NCBI GenBank assembly: GCA_001778785.1
Contig: MFIE01000019.1
Span: forward strand, 1,072-61,374
From: Candidatus Giovannonibacteria bacterium RIFCSPLOWO2_01_FULL_46_13
GTDB taxonomy: Bacteria; Patescibacteriota; Minisyncoccia; JACPKW01; UBA11713
Length of the DNA: 60,303 nt
Direction: 5' to 3'
The notes beneath the pieces are model-generated. The model was not told where the DNA came from. It saw only the letters and a program-made list of their open reading frames with translations, and did not search any database. Numbering within the stretch: the first letter of the stretch is position 1; each line of letters opens with the position of its first letter. Made by a program: the position numbers and the translations under genes. Positions 1,103-58,742 of the stretch are shown here, in pieces.

Positions 1103-3643
1103 ATGGTAAGAATCTGGCGCAAGCGCAAATTAATACTGTGGACCTCGGCCGGAGTGTTTGCGGTCCTTATTTTAGGTACGGTTGTCTACGCTACGACTTC
1201 GGTGCCTAATTTTGGCTCGCTCGAAGACCGCAAAATCGTCCAATCCACCAAGATATACGACCGCACCGGCAAGGTGCTTTTATACGACATCCACGGGGAC
1301 ATCCAGCGCACTGTTATCCCCTTCGAAGAAATACCGAACTACGCCAAAAACGCCACAATCGTAATTGAGGACCAAAATTTTTACCGCCACGCCGGAGTAA
1401 GCCCGACGAGTATCCTGCGGGCGCTCTTGGTAAACATGCATCTTAAAAGCGGGATCATCGGCCAAGGGGGGTCCACCTTAACCCAACAACTCGTTAAACA
1501 ATCCTTTCTAACCCCGGAGCGATCTCTCATCCGAAAAATACGCGAAGCTATCTTGGCGCTAAAAGTGGAAGCGAGTTATTCCAAAGACGAAATACTTGGT
1601 TTTTATTTAAACGAGATGCCATGGGGCAGAAGCGCCTACGGGATTGAAGCGGCAAGCCAGACCTATTTTGCAAAGCCCGCTAAAGACATTACCGTAGCCG
1701 AGTCCGCTTATCTAGCGGCGATGCTCCAGGCGCCAACGCGCTATTCCCCTTACGGCTCACATACCGACGAACTCGAGGGCAGGAAAAATTTGGTTATCGA
1801 TCGGCTCCACGAAAAGAATTTAATCACCGAGGAAGAATACAACGCCGCAAAAGCAGAGCAGGTTAAATTCGCGGCGCGCGCGGTCGGCGGGATAAAAGCC
1901 CCGCACTTTTCTATATATGTCCGGGAATATTTGGTTGAAAAATACGGGGAAGACGTCGTTGAAAAAGGCGGGCTCAAGGTTACAACTTCCCTAAACTGGG
2001 AGTGGCAGGAAAAATTAGAAGAGCTTGTCCGGACGTCCGCCGAACAAAATGAGAAAAATTTCAGGGCGTATAACGCCGGGATGGTCGCGACGGATCCTAA
2101 GACCGGGCAGATCATGGCGCTTGTCGGCTCGCGGGATTATTTTGCAGACCCGTTGCCGGAAGGATGTTCGCCGGGAGTTAATTGTAAATTTGACCCGCAG
2201 GTAAACATGACGCTTCGCTCGCGACAGCCTGGCTCTTCCATAAAACCGGTTATTTACGCTACCGCTTTTAAAAAAGGGTACACACCAAACACAGTTTTGT
2301 TCGATGCGCGCACGGAGTTTAGCGCATACTGTTCGCCGACAAGCGTACCCGATCCGGGGGTAGATCCGGAAAGGTGCTACCACCCGGATAATTTTGATAA
2401 TGTATTTCGCGGCCCAATGAGCCTCCGGAGCGCTTTGGCCCAATCCGTAAACGTGGTCGCGGTTAAAGTTTTGTACTTAGCCGGGCTTTCGGATTCGCTG
2501 CGAGTAGCGCGCGACATGGGGATCACGACGCTAGATGATCCGGACAGATACGGGCTGACTCTGGTTTTGGGAGGCGGAGAAGTTAAACTCTTGGAACTTA
2601 CGAATGCTTACGGAGTTTTTGCAAACGATGGGGCCTACTCTCCGTCAACTCCGATTTTAAAAATCGAAGACGGTGACGGAAACGCGCTCGAAGAATTTCG
2701 GGAAGCAAAAACGCAGGCCCTCGATCCGAATGTGGCGCGCATGATATCTAACGTCTTGTCAGACGATAACGCAAAGGCTCCAGCATTCACCGAAGCCTCC
2801 GCACCATCTTTGTTTATCCATGAAAGAAAAGTTGCTGTGAAAACCGGAACGACGCAAGACACCAGGGATACTTGGGTAATTGGATATACTCCAAACGTAG
2901 TTTTGGGTGTTTGGGCTGGCAACAACGACAACGCCGCCATGGAAAGACGCGTTGCTGGCTTGATTGTGGCGCCAATTTGGCACAAAGCCTTAACAGAGGT
3001 TATTTTACCGACGCTCCCGCAGGAAAATTTTATCACTCCAGAAATTCCAGAAAGGGATAAGCCGGTTTTAAACGGCGAGTGGCGCGGAGGGCAAGTTTAT
3101 AAAATAGACAAGACCTCCGGAAAACTTGCGAGCGAATTTACGCCCGAAGAACTTATCGAAAAAAGGGTCGTGCAGGAAGTCCACACAATATTGCATTGGG
3201 TAGACAAAAGTAACCCGTCAGGACCCCCGCCTTCGGATCCCTCTAGAGATTCGCAATATCGAAACTGGGAAACATCTGTCAGGGCATGGGCGGCCGCAAA
3301 CGGGATCATGGACGAGACAAGCGGCGTCATCCCCGGAGAGTATGATGATTCGCACCGCCCGGAGAATTTTCCGCGAGCGCAAATATTTTTAGATAGCGCG
3401 GATACGGTTTCCGACGGCACACGCATAATGGCCCGGGTTGAGACTTCGAGCACCTACCCCATCGAACAGGTAGATATTTTCCTCGGTGAAGAATATATCG
3501 GCTCGCATAAATCTGCGCCCTATATATTTCCGATAAGAATACAGGGGGGACCTGGAGAAGAAATAAAAATAACCGCGATCGTCTACGACCAGGTTAGAAA
3601 TAAAACAACCGTAGAAAAAATAGTTAGAATTTCTGAAAATTAA
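1103..3643 (+). CDS. Class A penicillin-binding protein (glycosyltransferase plus transpeptidase) with a C-terminal Ig-like extension
   Basis: N-terminal TM helix. GT51 motifs EDQNFYRHAGV, GGSTLTQQLVK and RKIREA. Transpeptidase motifs SSIKP (SxxK), SVN (SxN) and KTGTT (KTG). About 120 extra C-terminal residues that look like a beta-sandwich. Confidence 0.9.
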   Translation: MVRIWRKRKLILWTSAGVFAVLILGTVVYATTSVPNFGSLEDRKIVQSTKIYDRTGKVLLYDIHGDIQRTVIPFEEIPNYAKNATIVIEDQNFYRHAGVSPTSILRALLVNMHLKSGIIGQGGSTLTQQLVKQSFLTPERSLIRKIREAILALKVEASYSKDEILGFYLNEMPWGRSAYGIEAASQTYFAKPAKDITVAESAYLAAMLQAPTRYSPYGSHTDELEGRKNLVIDRLHEKNLITEEEYNAAKAEQVKFAARAVGGIKAPHFSIYVREYLVEKYGEDVVEKGGLKVTTSLNWEWQEKLEELVRTSAEQNEKNFRAYNAGMVATDPKTGQIMALVGSRDYFADPLPEGCSPGVNCKFDPQVNMTLRSRQPGSSIKPVIYATAFKKGYTPNTVLFDARTEFSAYCSPTSVPDPGVDPERCYHPDNFDNVFRGPMSLRSALAQSVNVVAVKVLYLAGLSDSLRVARDMGITTLDDPDRYGLTLVLGGGEVKLLELTNAYGVFANDGAYSPSTPILKIEDGDGNALEEFREAKTQALDPNVARMISNVLSDDNAKAPAFTEASAPSLFIHERKVAVKTGTTQDTRDTWVIGYTPNVVLGVWAGNNDNAAMERRVAGLIVAPIWHKALTEVILPTLPQENFITPEIPERDKPVLNGEWRGGQVYKIDKTSGKLASEFTPEELIEKRVVQEVHTILHWVDKSNPSGPPPSDPSRDSQYRNWETSVRAWAAANGIMDETSGVIPGEYDDSHRPENFPRAQIFLDSADTVSDGTRIMARVETSSTYPIEQVDIFLGEEYIGSHKSAPYIFPIRIQGGPGEEIKITAIVYDQVRNKTTVEKIVRISEN

Positions 3644-20787: not shown

Positions 20788-22719
20788 TTACTCCAATGTT
20801 ATTGTCGCCTCCTCGGCCCTTTCTAAAAGCTCTTCCGGGATGTCAAAAAGAAATTTTGAAGGAAGGTTTATTTTTCTCTCGCCGAAAATTGTGCGGAAGA
20901 CAGAATACGAAAGATAAATTTTCTCTTTCGAACGAGTGAGCGCCACGTAAAAAAGTCTTCGCTCTTCTTCCTCACGAAGCTCTGCGTTGTCTCCGGAAAG
21001 TGCGGAGTGCGGGAAGAGGCCTTCTTCGAGCCCAGCGATGAAAATCGCTTTAAATTCAAGGCCTTTTGCGGCGTGCACGGTCATGAGCTTGATGGAATTT
21101 TCTTCTTTTTTTATCGTGTCCTGGTCGGACATCAATGCCGCGTCTTCCAACAATTTTAAAATTCCTTCCGGCGCCGATCCGCCAGCCGGCGGATCGTATC
21201 TTTTTGCGAGCGTTACTAATTCTTGGATGTTTGCCAAGCGCATCTCCCCTTCCTCCGTGCCGTCGTTAAAATATTCTTCTAGTCCGGATTTTTTTATGAT
21301 GGCTTTTATTGCCTCCGAAGATTTTTTTTCTGTAACTTCTTTTTTAACCTCTTCCAATATTTTTTTAAACTCCACGATCTTGTTCTGCTCTTTTGGGCTA
21401 AGTTCCTCTCCTGATAAAATTTTTGTCAATAAAACTTTTCCAATCCCCCGCGGAGGGAAGTTCGTGATGCGCTTCATGGATAAAACATCGTCCGGGTTTA
21501 AGGCCGCGCGAAGGTAAGCGAGGGTATCCTTGATTTCCTTTCTTTCGTAAAACCGGACGCCGATAACTTGGTACGAAATATTTTTTTCAAGCATTTTTTC
21601 TTCGATGATCCGCGACTGGAAATTGGTGCGGTATAAAACCGCAATCTCTCGCGGAGGCATCCCTCCGCCGGCCGGCGGATTTACCAAATGGTTTGCGATC
21701 TCCGCTATGAAAGTCGCCTCCTCTTCTTCGTTGGAAGCTTCGAACAAAGTTATTTTCGGCCCAGATTTTTTCCTGGAAAAAAGATTTTTTGGGACGCGCG
21801 CTTTATTTTTCACGATGACCGCGTTTGCCGCGTCCAAAATTAATTGCGTGGACCTATAATTTTCTTCGAGCGTTATCATTTTCGCATCTGGCCAGTCGCG
21901 TTCGAAGTGCAAGATATTCCTGAAGTCGGCTCCCCTCCAGGAATAAATTGCCTGGTCGATATCGCCCACGACGCAAATGTTCCGGTATTTTTGGGCGAGA
22001 AGTTTTGTCAGGTGGTATTGCACGAGATTCGTATCTTGGTACTCGTCTACGTGTATATATTTGAACCTTTCCTGCCAAAATAGGAGAATTTCTGGGTTTT
22101 TAGTGAAAAGCTCGACCGTTTTCAATAATAAGTCGTCAAAATCAAGGGCTTTTGCGTTGGTGAGCTTTTCTTCGTACTTTCGCCAGGTTTCAAGCAGGAT
22201 ATTGCCGAACTGCCCGCTTCCCGAGGAACTCCAGTCGTTCGGGTTCTCCATTTCGTTCTTTTTCCTGGATATGATGTTCCTTAATTTTTTAGCTTCGTAC
22301 TTTTTCGGGTCGAGGCCCATGTCGTTGAGTGCCTCCTTTATCATGGCGAGGGCATCTTCCTCGTCCATGATGGAAAAACTTCTCGGGATTCCGATCGCTT
22401 TTCCGGAATTGCGGAGGATGTACACGCAAAAACTATGGAAGGTCCCAACCCATGGACCGGGTGCTTGCTCGTCGTATGGGTGGCTTTTCATCGCCGAAAT
22501 ACGGGTCCGCATTTCTTCGGCGGCTTTATTTGTGAAAGTTATGGCCAGTATTGACTCTGGTTTGACACCTTTCTCGATCAAATGCGAAATGCGATGGGTC
22601 AAAACCATCGTTTTGCCGGAACCGGCGCCCGCAACTATCAATACTGGGCCTTCCGATGTCAATATTGCTTCCTCTTGCGACGGGTTAGGGGAAGAATGTT
22701 CAAAATTTTTAGGCATCAA
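20788..22719 (-). CDS. UvrD/PcrA-type ATP-dependent DNA helicase
   Basis: Motif I AGAGSGKT, motif II VDEYQDTN, VLYRTNFQSR, and TVHAAKGLEF. Confidence 0.9.
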   Translation of the reverse strand: MMPKNFEHSSPNPSQEEAILTSEGPVLIVAGAGSGKTMVLTHRISHLIEKGVKPESILAITFTNKAAEEMRTRISAMKSHPYDEQAPGPWVGTFHSFCVYILRNSGKAIGIPRSFSIMDEEDALAMIKEALNDMGLDPKKYEAKKLRNIISRKKNEMENPNDWSSSGSGQFGNILLETWRKYEEKLTNAKALDFDDLLLKTVELFTKNPEILLFWQERFKYIHVDEYQDTNLVQYHLTKLLAQKYRNICVVGDIDQAIYSWRGADFRNILHFERDWPDAKMITLEENYRSTQLILDAANAVIVKNKARVPKNLFSRKKSGPKITLFEASNEEEEATFIAEIANHLVNPPAGGGMPPREIAVLYRTNFQSRIIEEKMLEKNISYQVIGVRFYERKEIKDTLAYLRAALNPDDVLSMKRITNFPPRGIGKVLLTKILSGEELSPKEQNKIVEFKKILEEVKKEVTEKKSSEAIKAIIKKSGLEEYFNDGTEEGEMRLANIQELVTLAKRYDPPAGGSAPEGILKLLEDAALMSDQDTIKKEENSIKLMTVHAAKGLEFKAIFIAGLEEGLFPHSALSGDNAELREEEERRLFYVALTRSKEKIYLSYSVFRTIFGERKINLPSKFLFDIPEELLERAEEATITLE

Positions 22720-22862: not shown

Positions 22863-23001
22863 ATATCGGTAAGGTAGTTTCAGAATTTTTCCATCCTTTG
22901 CCCAAAGGTCACACTACCTTTTACTCCTAACTAGACTTTTAACTATTAAGATTACAATTTGGCGCGCTTTTTCTTCTTGGATAGATAAGAAGCGCTGTAT
23001 A

Positions 23002-54815: not shown

Positions 54816-55046
54816 ATGGATTTTAAGGACTATCAGAAGCTAGAGGAAAGGGTGGGGGTCGCGGTGGTTTTTATTTTTTCCTCGGTTGCGTTGTCGGCCC
54901 TTTATATATGGCCGACTGGACTTACCTTTGTTCTCTGCTTCGCGGCCGCTTTCGCGGTTGGCGAGGCGACAAAGATTTGGCTGGGAGGAAAGTATGACCT
55001 CGTGACGAAGAGGATGGCGGAGGAGAGGATACGATTTATCGTATAA
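54816..55046 (+). CDS. 76-aa hypothetical membrane protein
   Basis: Start set at the ATG after AAAAGGAGAAAG. Two hydrophobic helices. The 3' end lies inside the 75-nt repeat. Confidence 0.5.
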   Translation: MDFKDYQKLEERVGVAVVFIFSSVALSALYIWPTGLTFVLCFAAAFAVGEATKIWLGGKYDLVTKRMAEERIRFIV

Positions 55047-55096
55047 CCTCTCCCCTCAACTGAGCTGACGAGAGAAATTTTCGAAGGCTCTGAGAG
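55022..55096 (+). repeat. 75-nt hairpin module, copy A
   Basis: GGAGAGGATACGA-TTTA-TCGTATAACCTCTCC followed by CCTCAACTGAGCTGACGAGAGAAATTTTCGAAGGCTCTGAGAG. Repeated at 57138-57211. Confidence 0.8.
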
Positions 55097-55115
55097 TTTG
55101 GAAGTTCTTTGAAAA

Positions 55116-55319
55116 TCAAATATCTTCGGGTGAAAGGCCAGCTTGTTTTAGGATTGATTTCAGCGTACCTTTTGGAATGTCTTTGTTGTGATAAGGCACA
55201 ATTGCACGTTTGCCATCGCTATTCCTATAAATAAAATGGCTTCCTTTGGAGCGTACGAAGTGGAAACCATTTTGCTCAAGCAGTTTGATGACTTGCTTTG
55301 GCGTTAGGGATTTAGGCAT
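55116..55319 (-). CDS. hicA: HicA-family toxin (second copy)
   Basis: MPKSLTPKQVIKLLEQNGFHFVRSKGSHFIYRN... Confidence 0.8.
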   Translation of the reverse strand: MPKSLTPKQVIKLLEQNGFHFVRSKGSHFIYRNSDGKRAIVPYHNKDIPKGTLKSILKQAGLSPEDI

Positions 55320-55608
55320 GAGTAAACGAGGCTGTTTTTCTAGGAAGGTCTATTGTGACTTCTCCGGTGTATGTTGGAGATTCATTGGGAATAGGCTCGC
55401 CCCGTTCAATCATATCTTCAAGATAGAGCTCAATAGCTTCTTTAGCCATTTTTTGAGCTTCATCAATGTCTCTTCCAAAGGTTATGCAGCCTGGTAACGC
55501 TGGAACGAGCACGGTAAAGCCGCCTTCCGGTTCTTTGCGTAGAATAATTGGAAATCGCAACTGACCATCAAATTTAGTGCGCTTTATTTTGTGAGTTTTC
55601 TTGACCAT
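55312..55608 (-). CDS. hicB: HicB-family antitoxin (second copy)
   Basis: FPIILRKEPEGGFTVLVPALPGCITFGRDIDEAQKMAKEAIELYLE. 8-nt overlap with hicA. Confidence 0.75.
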   Translation of the reverse strand: MVKKTHKIKRTKFDGQLRFPIILRKEPEGGFTVLVPALPGCITFGRDIDEAQKMAKEAIELYLEDMIERGEPIPNESPTYTGEVTIDLPRKTASFTHA

Positions 55609-55999: not shown

Positions 56000-56269
56000 A
56001 TGGGCGTTTTTACGCTCGATAAAACGGCCCAGGAAGAGTTGAACGATCTCTTCCGCAATGAGGATCATTGGTCCTCTGAGGGAACTCCTGGAGAAGGACA
56101 TTCTTCATTGGTGCGGTATGTTTCTAATCTCATTATCGCCGCACTTATGGCGAGTGGTAAGGTGGAGATCCCCGCGCCACTTGGGACCGAAGAGGTTTTG
56201 GAGACAGAAGTCATTGAATTGGCAGCTGTACTCCGAAGGAGGGCCGACCCTGACACACCGATGTCGTAA
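56000..56269 (+). CDS. 89-aa hypothetical protein
   Basis: ATG after GAAAGGAGAA. No recognisable motif. Confidence 0.5.
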   Translation: MGVFTLDKTAQEELNDLFRNEDHWSSEGTPGEGHSSLVRYVSNLIIAALMASGKVEIPAPLGTEEVLETEVIELAAVLRRRADPDTPMS

Positions 56270-56409: not shown

Positions 56410-56445
56410 GGGGAGAAGAATGCAAAATATTGCATTCTTCTCCCC
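56410..56445 (+). other. Perfect 16-bp hairpin with a 4-nt loop
   Basis: GGGGAGAAGAATGCAA-AATA-TTGCATTCTTCTCCCC. Confidence 0.8.
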
Positions 56446-56447
56446 GA

Positions 56448-56517
56448 ACGCTCGCGAGATGTGTGTCTCGCCTGATGAGCCCGCCAAAGGCGGGCAAGTC
56501 CAAAAGGACGAAAGCGT
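56448..56517 (+). ncRNA. Candidate type III hammerhead ribozyme (variant with an extra hairpin)
   Basis: ACGCU-C17, stem I GCGAGA/UCUCGC, CUGAUGA, stem II GCCCGCC/GGCGGGC, extra GUCC-AAAA-GGAC, then GAAA-GCGU closing stem III. Confidence 0.55.
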
Positions 56518-56524
56518 GTGTTCT

Positions 56525-56639
56525 TTGAATTAAATATTATAGATTTCTGGTTGCCGTTTTGATTCTGATTTTTCGGAGTTGAAGCGGCGGCCGGAAAATC
56601 TAACCATTTCGGTTCGACCAAATAATTTCAATCCGGAGG
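56525..56639 (+). repeat. 115-nt leader repeat, copy 1 (upstream of 56646 gene)
   Basis: 111 of 115 positions identical, with no indels, to 57224-57338. Ends in the SD TCCGGAGG. Confidence 0.9.
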
Positions 56640-56645
56640 CATGAG

Positions 56646-57092
56646 ATGAAAAAAGTAATTTGGCTGTCCCGACATGATTTGTCGGCAGCCCAAGTTAAGG
56701 CCCTTCGTGAACTCCATGGGGAGGACGCGGAGATTGTGAAAGAATCCCCGTCGCTTAACGGCCCGGAAGGTTTACTCGATTTCATCGAGAAGACCGATAA
56801 GGCTGGGTACGGTAACACGTTTGTGTACGCCGTGGCCGCCGCCGTGCATTACATTTCGGCGACGATCAGAGGAAAGCCGTTCGGAATTTTCGAAAACCAT
56901 CCGCAAAAGCGGATGGATGGAAGCTTCGGACTAGCGGCAGTGTACTGGGTAAACGTTAATCGTAACTACCCATGCACGGACGAACGGATGCCGGCGGGAC
57001 ATGACTCTCTTCGAAAGGTCTGGGTTAACCCAGACCCAATGACTGATTTCGGGGAGACTTTAATCCCCGTTGTCCGAGACGCTAACATATAG
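56646..57092 (+). CDS. 148-aa hypothetical protein
   Basis: ORF preceded by a GGAGG SD. No recognisable motif. Confidence 0.55.
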   Translation: MKKVIWLSRHDLSAAQVKALRELHGEDAEIVKESPSLNGPEGLLDFIEKTDKAGYGNTFVYAVAAAVHYISATIRGKPFGIFENHPQKRMDGSFGLAAVYWVNVNRNYPCTDERMPAGHDSLRKVWVNPDPMTDFGETLIPVVRDANI

Positions 57093-57137: not shown

Positions 57138-57211
57138 GGAGAGGCTACGATTTATCGTACAACCTCTCCCCTCAACTGAGCTGACGAGAGAAATTTCGAA
57201 GGCTCTGAGAG
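57138..57211 (+). repeat. 75-nt hairpin module, copy B
   Basis: Differs from 55022-55096 by 2 substitutions and 1 deleted T. Confidence 0.8.
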
Positions 57212-57223
57212 GTAGAAAGTTCC

Positions 57224-57338
57224 TTGAATTAAATATCATAGATTTCTGGTTGCCGCTTTGATTCTGATTTTTCGGAGTTGAAACGGCGGCCGGAAAATCT
57301 AACCATTTCGGTTCGACCAAACAATTTCAATCCGGAGG
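57224..57338 (+). repeat. 115-nt leader repeat, copy 2 (upstream of 57343 gene)
   Basis: See copy 1. Confidence 0.9.
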
Positions 57339-57342
57339 TGCG

Positions 57343-57963
57343 ATGAAGAAAATTTTTCTCTCCGATGAGGAGAAAGGATGGTCAATTCCCAAGTTGGCCG
57401 AGAAGTACGGCGTGTCTCGTGCGACCGCGTGGCGCGCCAAAAAACGGGGCTGGCTTGTGCCAGCATATCTCGAGAAGAAAATGATTATTTCTGATGACGG
57501 GATTCCGGTCTCCAAAGAAGAAATTATCAGAGATGCCAAGACGGGAGTCTTCGGTTTCTTGAAGAGGGTTTTAGCTGGTAAGAATTTCAAACAGGCTATA
57601 GCCCCCTTTTCAACGGACGATATGGTCCAGGAGGCCACAAAAAGGCTTTATGAATTAACTGGCCATGAAAAGTTTACAGACCGCAGCTGGCGAATCAATG
57701 TCGCATGGGTTGCGGCGAGGGATTTTATTCAGGGGTCTGTGTGGAAGCATGGACTCGTCGATAGAATCCCGGATAAATGGGAACTTCCAGAAGAACCAAG
57801 AATCTTTGGGGAAAATAGTGTTTTTCTGGCGGAGCTTCGGTGGAGATTGGGAGAAAGGAGGTGGGAGTTATTGTGGGATTGGGCTAAAGGAAGTAGTAAT
57901 CTCAAACCGCCGCAGGATTTAATTCGTGCGGCACGAAAGGAGACTGGACTATGTCCCTCCTAG
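57343..57963 (+). CDS. HTH-domain protein with weak sigma-70 region-2-like segment
   Basis: N-terminal HTH IPKLAEKYGVSRATAWRAKKRG. The mid-region DDMVQEATKRLYEL...RINVAWVAARDFI is reminiscent of sigma region 2 (weak). Confidence 0.5.
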   Translation: MKKIFLSDEEKGWSIPKLAEKYGVSRATAWRAKKRGWLVPAYLEKKMIISDDGIPVSKEEIIRDAKTGVFGFLKRVLAGKNFKQAIAPFSTDDMVQEATKRLYELTGHEKFTDRSWRINVAWVAARDFIQGSVWKHGLVDRIPDKWELPEEPRIFGENSVFLAELRWRLGERRWELLWDWAKGSSNLKPPQDLIRAARKETGLCPS

Positions 57964-58742
57964 TTTCAATCATCTGTAGATTGTGTGGGTCGGATTTCCA
58001 GGTCGACCCAAAAACATTCGGGGCGCTCGGTTTACGGGGCGTCCCGAAAAAATGCCCCTCCTGCTGCGATAAAAAGCAGGAGCGGCCCCCGGAGGCGACG
58101 GTGATCAATCGCCAGTGCCTCCAGGATTTTCCGGCAGTGCGAGTGTGCTTGCCGGAAAATCTCTTCGCGCCTTTCAAGGCGCAGAATGATGATCGTCCGT
58201 GTTTGCGGGCGGTTATAAAAGGAAGCTCTCTTGGCAGAGGAGCTTCTTGGTCAGGTCGGCTCGATATTTATTGTCTAGCCGAAAAGTTGCCCTCCGTTGC
58301 CCGTGTACGGGTGATGGAAGTAACCCATGTCTCCGGCCAGCGTCGCATGGAGCGGCACAAGGATGCGGAGGGGGCGGTACCAGGAGTATCGCTTTCGCAC
58401 CCCGGCCAGCCGACGAGAACGGTGGAGGTGGAGTATTCACCCACCTATACCTATCTCGTTTTGGAGCCGACGGGTGAAGAACCTTTGGCGGCCCTGATCT
58501 TCACGAGCGTGAATTACAAAACCACGCTCAAGGGGTTCGGGAGGCAATGGTATGCCTCATTGGATACCTCGGCGGCCCTCTGGGTGCGTGAACTTTCAAG
58601 CTCAGCACGCTCCGGTCGCTTCGGTGCTTATGGCGCCGTGGCAGTGGTTGACGAAGGTCATCTCGTCATCGCTAAGCAGTGGGGTGACATCGAGTCGCAC
58701 ACTGCTTTCTCCGGTGATAAAAAGGAGGTTGTTGAGGGGTAA
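57951..58742 (+). CDS. Hypothetical protein with an N-terminal zinc ribbon (CxxC...CxxCC)
   Basis: CRLCGSDFQVDPKTFGALGLRGVPKKCPSCCDKK. Overlaps the upstream gene by 13 nt. Confidence 0.55.
   Translation: MSLLVSIICRLCGSDFQVDPKTFGALGLRGVPKKCPSCCDKKQERPPEATVINRQCLQDFPAVRVCLPENLFAPFKAQNDDRPCLRAVIKGSSLGRGASWSGRLDIYCLAEKLPSVARVRVMEVTHVSGQRRMERHKDAEGAVPGVSLSHPGQPTRTVEVEYSPTYTYLVLEPTGEEPLAALIFTSVNYKTTLKGFGRQWYASLDTSAALWVRELSSSARSGRFGAYGAVAVVDEGHLVIAKQWGDIESHTAFSGDKKEVVEG

Follow-up and report, generated by a model that had tools for sequence, protein, structure and literature searches.

Among small ribozymes the hammerhead serves as the reference, and the way in which it is defined, searched for and engineered presupposes a three-way junction in which the conserved boxes abut the stems. 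In the canonical structure, the A9/G10.1 part of the core is kept continuous, and this side of the core contributes a metal-binding site. The sTRSV hammerhead reads ACCGGA-UGUGCUU-UCCGGU, CUGAUGA, GUCC-GUGA-GGAC and GAAA, and forms of its kind (type III) make a tertiary contact between loop I and loop II. Two engineered systems are also relevant here: the sTRSV-derived RiboJ insulators, in which a hammerhead in the 5' UTR cuts away the RNA before it, so that the mRNA begins with a structured 5'-OH end, and the aptazymes, allosteric hammerheads in which modules are grafted on stem II, with its loop replaced or extended.

Natural hammerheads flanking genes of phages cleave transcripts of about 2 kb in vitro, and the processing of long RNAs into gene-length mRNAs was proposed as their role (Perreault et al., 2011; PMC3088659). 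At the site between A9 and stem II, known hammerheads carry no helical insertions, with at most 1-2 nt present (Eckert & Weinberg, 2023; PMC10085705).

The element at 56448-56517 and its genomic setting

The window analysed here is a 60,303-nt segment of the chromosome of Candidatus Giovannonibacteria (CPR) that carries the genes for RNase Y, iPGM, ClpP and H+-PPase. Five + strand tRNA genes between 37993 and 47696 (Arg-TCG, Pro-CGG, Ala-CGC, Pro-TGG and Gly-TCC) are ordinary chromosomal content. A mobile-looking island of about 5 kb, made of small genes, is located between the ClpP and H+-PPase genes and includes a HicA toxin/HicB antitoxin pair at 55116-55319 (-) and 55312-55608 (-) (PHROG toxin, E = 2e-24; Pfam HicB_lk_antitox, E = 1e-14). 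The hammerhead candidate lies in this island between two + strand genes, the first a small ORF that ends at 56269 and the second, from 56646, coding for a 148-aa protein, in an intergenic or 5' UTR location co-oriented with the downstream gene, as is typical of its family. The preliminary description of this DNA had placed it in a non-coding gap of an ORFan island, with a duplicated leader immediately downstream, and had likened this to mobile or phage-like surroundings; the gene map and the repeat comparison agree with that setting. The features are as follows.

56410-56445, + strand: perfect 16-bp hairpin, GGGGAGAAGAATGCAA / TTGCATTCTTCTCCCC, with no + strand U-run, ending 2 nt before stem III
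56448-56452, + strand: stem III 5' arm ACGCU, with U16.1 at 56452 (sequence and MFE fold)
56453, + strand: C17, by motif position; predicted cut at 56453/56454
56454-56471, + strand: stem I, GCGAGA-UGUGUG-UCUCGC, 6 bp with a family-typical loop; all six pairs covary in the family
56472-56478, + strand: core CUGAUGA, C3 to A9 (sequence and covariance-model alignment)
56479-56497, + strand: proposed insert between A9 and stem II, consisting of a 7-bp hairpin GCCCGCC-AAA-GGCGGGC (56479-56495) and an AA linker (56496-56497)
56498-56509, + strand: probable stem II, GUCC-AAAA-GGAC, with G10.1 at 56498 and C11.1 at 56509; near-identical to stem II of canonical members
56510-56513, + strand: core GAAA, G12 to A15.1 (sequence and covariance-model alignment)
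56513-56517, + strand: stem III 3' arm AGCGU, A15.1 at 56513 pairing with U16.1 at 56452 (sequence and MFE fold)
56520-56639, + strand: 120-nt leader starting with GTTCTTTGAA, with a hairpin of about 29 bp at 56540-56602; duplicated at 57219-57338
56646-57092, + strand: gene of the 148-aa protein, with 46 relatives

The coordinates given for the element in the preliminary description matched base for base when the sequence was read again. The boxes follow the order of a hammerhead (stem III 5' arm, H17, stem I, CUGANGA, stem II, GAAA, stem III 3' arm), and the context of the cleavage site is also the expected one, with U56452, a C at 56453 (H17 not being G) and the A15.1-U16.1 pair. Folding of the 70-mer gives precisely these four helices as the MFE structure, at -34.4 kcal/mol (z = -5.3; none of 200 dinucleotide shuffles was as good), with a frequency of 0.41 in the predicted ensemble and no competing alternative pairing, and the same four helices were retained when the element was folded within 256 nt of context. 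The proposed inserted hairpin alone reached z = -6.3 compared to shuffles. In nine same-species contigs from other samples, seven of them spanning the element, the 246 nt before the gene are identical as far as they are covered; therefore, the element is not an assembly artefact.

The 148-aa protein had no match in Pfam or PHROG. The two copies of the leader (56520-56639 and 57219-57338) are 96% identical and precede the 148-aa gene and an HTH gene, respectively; in the second copy, the hairpin of about 29 bp is found at 57239-57301. In another contig of the same species (L181), leader copy 1 has the bases of copy 2 at 56538 and 56557, which suggests gene conversion between the copies.

Another repeat (55022-55113 and 57138-57228; 87-97% identical) is formed by a hairpin GGAGAGG...CCTCTCC followed by a stem-loop containing CUGACGA, and occupies the position that the hammerhead holds before leader copy 1; its 3' arm CCUCUC could instead pair with a downstream GAGAGG. 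This repeat (CUGACGA…GAAA) was considered as a second ribozyme and rejected, as it gave no Rfam match, its GAAA differs between the copies and it corresponds to two plain hairpins. The motif GTTC(T/C)T(T/C)GAA, a TTC...GAA inverted repeat, is present six times in the 5-kb island (55105, 55728, 55970, 56521, 57220 and 58744) compared to twice in the other 55 kb, most of the island sites being about 30-125 nt upstream of + strand starts. An operator, a promoter element and an RNA site are all conceivable roles.

The UGUGUG-loop family and its insertion variants

One homologue of the 148-aa protein is encoded on contig L003, which also has a fully canonical type III hammerhead that shares the UGUGUG loop on stem I (ACUGU-C-UCCCGA-UGUGUG-UCGGGG-CUGAUGA-UUCC-GAAA-GGAU-GAAA-CAGU), followed by a similar CTCTTTGAA motif. 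Canonical relatives were found in CPR contigs, including this one, and in Woesebacteria. A pattern search of IMG/VR gave at least 120 loci and, among the matches listed, about 90 could be parsed as the same family. Its members show a stem III of the form NCUGU, an H17 that is A, C or U and never G, a 6-bp stem I closed by the UGUGUG loop, CUGAUGA and, in the approximately 90 canonical members among the matches listed, a stem II of 4-5 bp with an AAAA or GAAA loop that directly abuts GAAA. The search patterns themselves prescribed the UGUGUG loop, the core and the AAAG...YGAAA string, so that conservation of these elements among the matches is by construction. The stem I loop and the A-rich stem II loop of the window element are identical to the family consensus. 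Of 119 non-redundant members, 88 have, downstream on the same strand, a Shine-Dalgarno sequence and a start codon that opens an ORF of 40 aa or more, with a median distance of 27 nt, whereas the element in the window is separated from the start codon by 128 nt because the duplicated 120-nt leader with its hairpin of about 29 bp intervenes. As in the window, a hairpin or terminator directly abuts the 5' side of the hammerhead in relatives. Several contigs carry more than one family hammerhead flanking single genes: two in L160, four in L150, and also L144, L147 and L158. A similar CTCTTTGAA/CTCTTTAAA sequence follows the hammerheads of L003 and L151.

To quantify the relationship, 58 distinct canonical members of 51 nt, from phage and CPR contigs, were aligned without gaps (alignment A1). 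With members pre-filtered for pairing, 94.7% of the cells were paired, compared to 31-48% when the partners were slid. Thirteen of the 15 pairs changed on both sides, including all six of stem I as covarying pairs, and the A15.1-U16.1 pair was invariant (58/58), whereas the 10.1-11.1 pair was of a non-Watson-Crick type in 34 of the 58. As for the covariation check proposed in the preliminary description, the same-species contigs are identical and give none within the species, and covariation was seen in the family.

The covariance model built from this alignment (R1) matched the window at 56450-56515 with 35.2 bits (E ~1.8e-9, filters off, all 60 kb). Rfam at gathering thresholds reported only the five tRNAs in the window and no hammerhead. 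In sensitive mode, Hammerhead_3 (RF00008) aligned end to end at 56446-56519 with 25.0 bits, below its gathering threshold of 48.5 bits (E = 0.004 on 400 nt). The canonical L003 hammerhead itself reached only 29.0 bits with RF00008; thus, this threshold discriminates little for the UGUGUG-loop subfamily, and the low Rfam score reflects model coverage and is not evidence against the element. The lack of a significant covariance-model match had been named beforehand as grounds for discarding the element: this holds for the Rfam model, which also misses canonical relatives, but the family model was highly significant. The earlier assignment to type III, with the full core in order, is borne out by the sequence and by the family model, and the membership of the element in the UGUGUG-loop type III family is secure.

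The family also indicates which of the two hairpins is the additional one. Canonical members have a short stem II immediately after CUGAUGA, and its A-rich loop and 3' strand run straight into GAAA; the stem II sequences GUCC-CAAA-GGAC (L015) and GUCC-AAAA-GGAC (L153/L165) correspond to the second hairpin of the window. Therefore, by homology, the extra element would be the first hairpin plus AA (56479-56497), between A9 and G10.1, a segment without counterpart in the approximately 90 canonical relatives among the matches listed. The preliminary description was right in counting one hairpin beyond the textbook motif, in agreement with the four-helix MFE fold, but it had the two hairpins exchanged: the GUCC-AAAA-GGAC that it named as extra is the standard stem II of the family, and the GCCCGCC-AAA-GGCGGGC that it took as stem II is by homology the insert. 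The layout that it proposed, with extra material between stem II and G12 of GAAA, had no match in the viral collection, whereas inserts 5' of stem II recur. In the homology-based reading 19 nt intervene between CUGAUGA and stem II, and for this reason the element is rated as a variant and not as a plain member; CUGANGA would directly abut stem II only if G56479 paired with C56509, a less favoured reading discussed below.

To search for insertions at this site, a pattern was used in which CUGAUGA and an AAAG-N2-3-YGAAA tail had to be 14 nt or more apart; it matched 8 viral, 27 metagenome and 8 genome loci. In most matches stems I and III were paired and H17 was not G, none of which was forced by the pattern, and R1 scores of 33-56 bits were obtained. 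Three classes were distinguished, as listed below.

Class (a), one extra hairpin 5' of stem II, 7 distinct sequences including the window: window, L160, L151/L154/L170, L142, L155, L138/L157 and L149
Class (a), L160, 1971-2042, - strand: GCCCUGUA-UUU-UGCGGGGC, AA, GUCC-AAAA-GGAC
Class (a), L151/L154/L170: GUUUGUCGC-AAUUAC-GCGACGGAC, AA, GGCC-AAAA-GGCC
Class (b), two extra hairpins, 8 distinct marine-phage sequences: L127, L129, L131, L140, L147a, L147b, L150 and L158
Class (c), outer stem II pairs that enclose further helices: L143/L166, L164, L167, L139, L144 and L160 (2951-3024), several copies being from MAGs of Saccharibacteria or other Patescibacteria

In every copy of classes (a) and (b), CUGAUGA and GAAA are intact, H17 is not G, stems I and III are paired, and stem II closes with a G-C pair adjoining GAAA. 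The extra hairpins of class (a) share no common sequence, yet all five basal pairs form in the seven sequences. In class (b), 99% of the cells pair and the first extra hairpin has a compensatory column (AU/CG/UA). One-hairpin inserts folded significantly better than their shuffles (z from -2.4 to -6.3), and for two-hairpin inserts the excess was marginal in three of four cases (z from -1.5 to -2.9). The base after A9 is A or C in four of the seven class (a) copies and in all eight of class (b); as neither base can pair with C11.1, there is no doubt that in those copies a complete stem II follows the insert. G follows A9 in the window, L160 and L151, and the AA linker is kept in all three. The insert loops vary (AAA, UUU, UUCG, GNRA), as does the number of hairpins, one or two. 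Neither an exact 24-mer of core plus insert nor a pattern specific for the window type (…AAGNCCAAAAGGNCGAAA) had a match in viral contigs. A 56-nt class of pattern matches in viral contigs was rejected as insertion variants, being conserved coding sequence without the stems, and L132, L141, L162, L168, L053, L066 and L130 were considered chance pattern matches.

The closest counterpart was found in L160, a contig from the same aquifer metagenome as L182, one of the window's own contigs. The hammerhead at 1971-2042 (-) of L160 has exactly the architecture of the window element; stems I and III and the insert differ in sequence but stay paired, and stem II and the AA linker are identical. It is located 54 nt upstream of the gene of a 485-aa protein, a homologue (31% identity, E = 2e-27) of the 263-aa protein encoded at 57951-58742 of the window. 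A second hammerhead of L160 (2951-3024, -) lies upstream of the preceding gene, and its stem II (GUCU/AGAC) encloses a long extra helix. The HTH protein of the window showed no similarity to a 268-aa protein of L160.

No hammerhead was found in the islands that encode the closest relatives of the 263-aa protein (L171-L178); thus, the element appears sporadic and cassette-like and is not conserved in synteny. The search was also negative at three loci with relatives of the 148-aa protein (L001, L005 and L006), and among the related loci examined only L003/L004 and L160 carried one. In L171-L178, the homologue of the 263-aa protein adjoins a TrmB-family gene, in L175 also ClpP, as in the window, and in L176 a serine recombinase adjoins the island, consistent with a mobile element.

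The window contains what appears to be a relic of the family at 22874-22927 (-), which keeps stem III, A17, stem I (AAAGGU-AGUGUG-ACCUUU), a stem II with an AAAA loop and GAAA, with the CUGAUGA box decayed to GGGCAAAGGA (R1, 18.8 bits, E ~1e-3). It is intergenic, about 155 nt upstream of the minus-strand gene at 20788-22719.

Possible function of the element and alternative readings

The reading that we favour, to which we assign a probability of about 0.6, is that the element is a genuine type III hammerhead of the phage/CPR-island family, in the form of a four-way-junction variant, that it cleaves itself and that it processes mRNA. The element would be co-transcribed on the + strand with its flanking + strand genes, and read-through past the 16-bp hairpin at 56410-56445 would be expected, as this hairpin has no U-run. 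The RNA would then fold into the hammerhead core and cut the read-through transcript between C56453 and G56454, yielding an upstream product that would end in the protective 16-bp hairpin with a 2',3'-cyclic phosphate, and a downstream mRNA that would start with a 5'-OH and carry the compact remainder of the ribozyme followed by the 120-nt leader and the 148-aa gene. The 19-nt insert between A9 and G10.1 would turn the three-way junction into a four-way junction. As GAAA is still contiguous with the A-rich loop and 3' strand of stem II, the stack of the tandem G-A pairs on stem II and the contact between loops I and II could still form, with the extra helix projecting outward. The sequence, the fold, the membership in the family, the recurrence of the insertion site and the gene context are shown here; we infer the cleavage activity, the accommodation of the insert in three dimensions and the role in mRNA processing, and an insert beside A9/G10.1 could also slow or abolish catalysis.

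This last possibility leads to the reading of the element as an inactivated relic, a canonical hammerhead disrupted by a GC-rich hairpin beside A9 that would now be a structured intergenic RNA or part of a terminator or stabiliser. In favour of this reading, the insert touches the core where constraint is strongest, islands closely related to this one have no hammerhead, and relics do exist, namely the decayed minus-strand element of the window and the decayed copy L018. However, such actual relics carry core mutations and not tidy helices, whereas in the element at 56448-56517 all the core nucleotides, H17, the A15.1-U16.1 pair, both conserved loops and all the helices are intact, and clean helical inserts at the same site are found in at least 15 distinct phage/CPR sequences with intact cores and a G-C-closed stem II. 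A relic is thus unlikely; the decayed copy offered as an alternative in the preliminary description loses ground because many independent copies with an insert at the same site have kept their cores intact, and the element is most probably a functional four-way-junction variant. That functional copies could be regulated, with the extra hairpin acting as a protein or ligand site or as a folding switch that tunes cleavage and downstream expression, would fit the position of the insertion, where helix geometry controls the core, and the conservation of the AA linker in the window, L160 and L151; regulation of some phage hammerheads has also been speculated upon (Perreault et al.; PMC3088659). Nevertheless, the inserted helices have no conserved sequence or loop and come as one or two hairpins, which favours a structural spacer over a specific aptamer or protein site, and no competing pairing appears in the predicted ensemble (MFE frequency 0.41), so that we consider this kind of control quite improbable.

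A different question is how the helices are connected. The first alternative of the preliminary description was a bifurcated stem II, in which G56479 would be G10.1 and form a single closing pair with C56509, with CCCGCC/GGCGGG and UCC/GGA above it in a three-way junction. It would be a sub-variant, in structure and not in function, of the four-helix hammerhead favoured above. The Rfam model and R1 both align G56479...C56509 as the outer pair of stem II, G follows A9 in all three of the window, L160 and L151, and in L143, L164, L167 and the second L160 hammerhead an outer stem II (GUCC...GGAC) encloses the extra helices. On the other hand, the two-hairpin fold of 7 + 4 bp is the MFE structure, and the A or C after A9 in four of seven one-hairpin and eight of eight two-hairpin variants is unable to pair with C11.1. 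The bifurcated form is therefore possible for the three copies with G after A9, if somewhat doubtful for the window element. Finally, a chance resemblance within a cluster of terminator-like hairpins might be suspected from the fact that CTGATGA...GAAA alone is expected by chance about once per window and from the sub-threshold Rfam match (E = 0.58 on the whole window), but this explanation is effectively refuted by the R1 score (E ~1.8e-9), the presence of both family-specific loops and the near-twin in the related island of L160.

Comparison with described hammerheads

As judged from the alignments, there is about an even chance that the window element and its at least 15 relatives form an undescribed class of natural four- or five-way-junction hammerheads, which would stay catalytic with one or two helices between A9 and G10.1 as long as stem II is closed by a G-C pair and its 3' strand and A-rich loop are contiguous with GAAA. 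They are possibly also the first hammerheads noted in Patescibacteria. Literature searches on natural four-way-junction hammerheads and on hammerheads in Patescibacteria gave nothing relevant, which with incomplete coverage is weak evidence of absence; the novelty of the four-way-junction form is therefore provisional. If this class is real, present descriptors and Rfam models would under-detect hammerheads, as already canonical members of the subfamily score below threshold, and the A9/G10.1 side would tolerate far more than mutagenesis of minimal constructs had suggested. The site would offer a natural attachment point for sensor or scaffold modules, and cleavage might be regulated through the extra helix as a natural handle. 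The proposed role would also bring mRNA processing by hammerheads to the mobile islands of CPR bacteria, a group in which RNA biology has hardly been studied.

Compared to the hammerheads surveyed by Eckert & Weinberg (PMC10085705), the window element has the same conserved blocks that are used there to define the class, and the insertion copies described here differ in the helical insert of 17-28 nt that parts CUGAUGA from the stem II strand. The resemblance to the phage and prophage hammerheads of Perreault et al. (PMC3088659) concerns the setting and the proposed role, the cutting of long transcripts into mRNAs the length of a gene. The element is intergenic, co-oriented with and just upstream of a gene, in surroundings like those of a mobile element, and several copies per contig are possible in both cases (two in L160, four in L150). 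In contrast, the host of the window element is a CPR bacterium, and a whole helix inserted beside the core is not among the variations reported for the phage hammerheads.

With the sTRSV-like form represented by RF00008, the window element shares the core, the open stem III, a 6-bp stem I, a UGUG-containing loop and a stem II of the type GUCC-NNNN-GGAC, and it differs in the 19 nt of hairpin and linker between A9 and G10.1, with four helices instead of three. Its proposed action would be similar to that of RiboJ, an inferred analogy in function; RiboJ is engineered and the element is natural. As in the aptazymes, the extra structure is on the stem II side of the core, but here it would be a helix placed beside an intact stem II, with a sequence that is not conserved.
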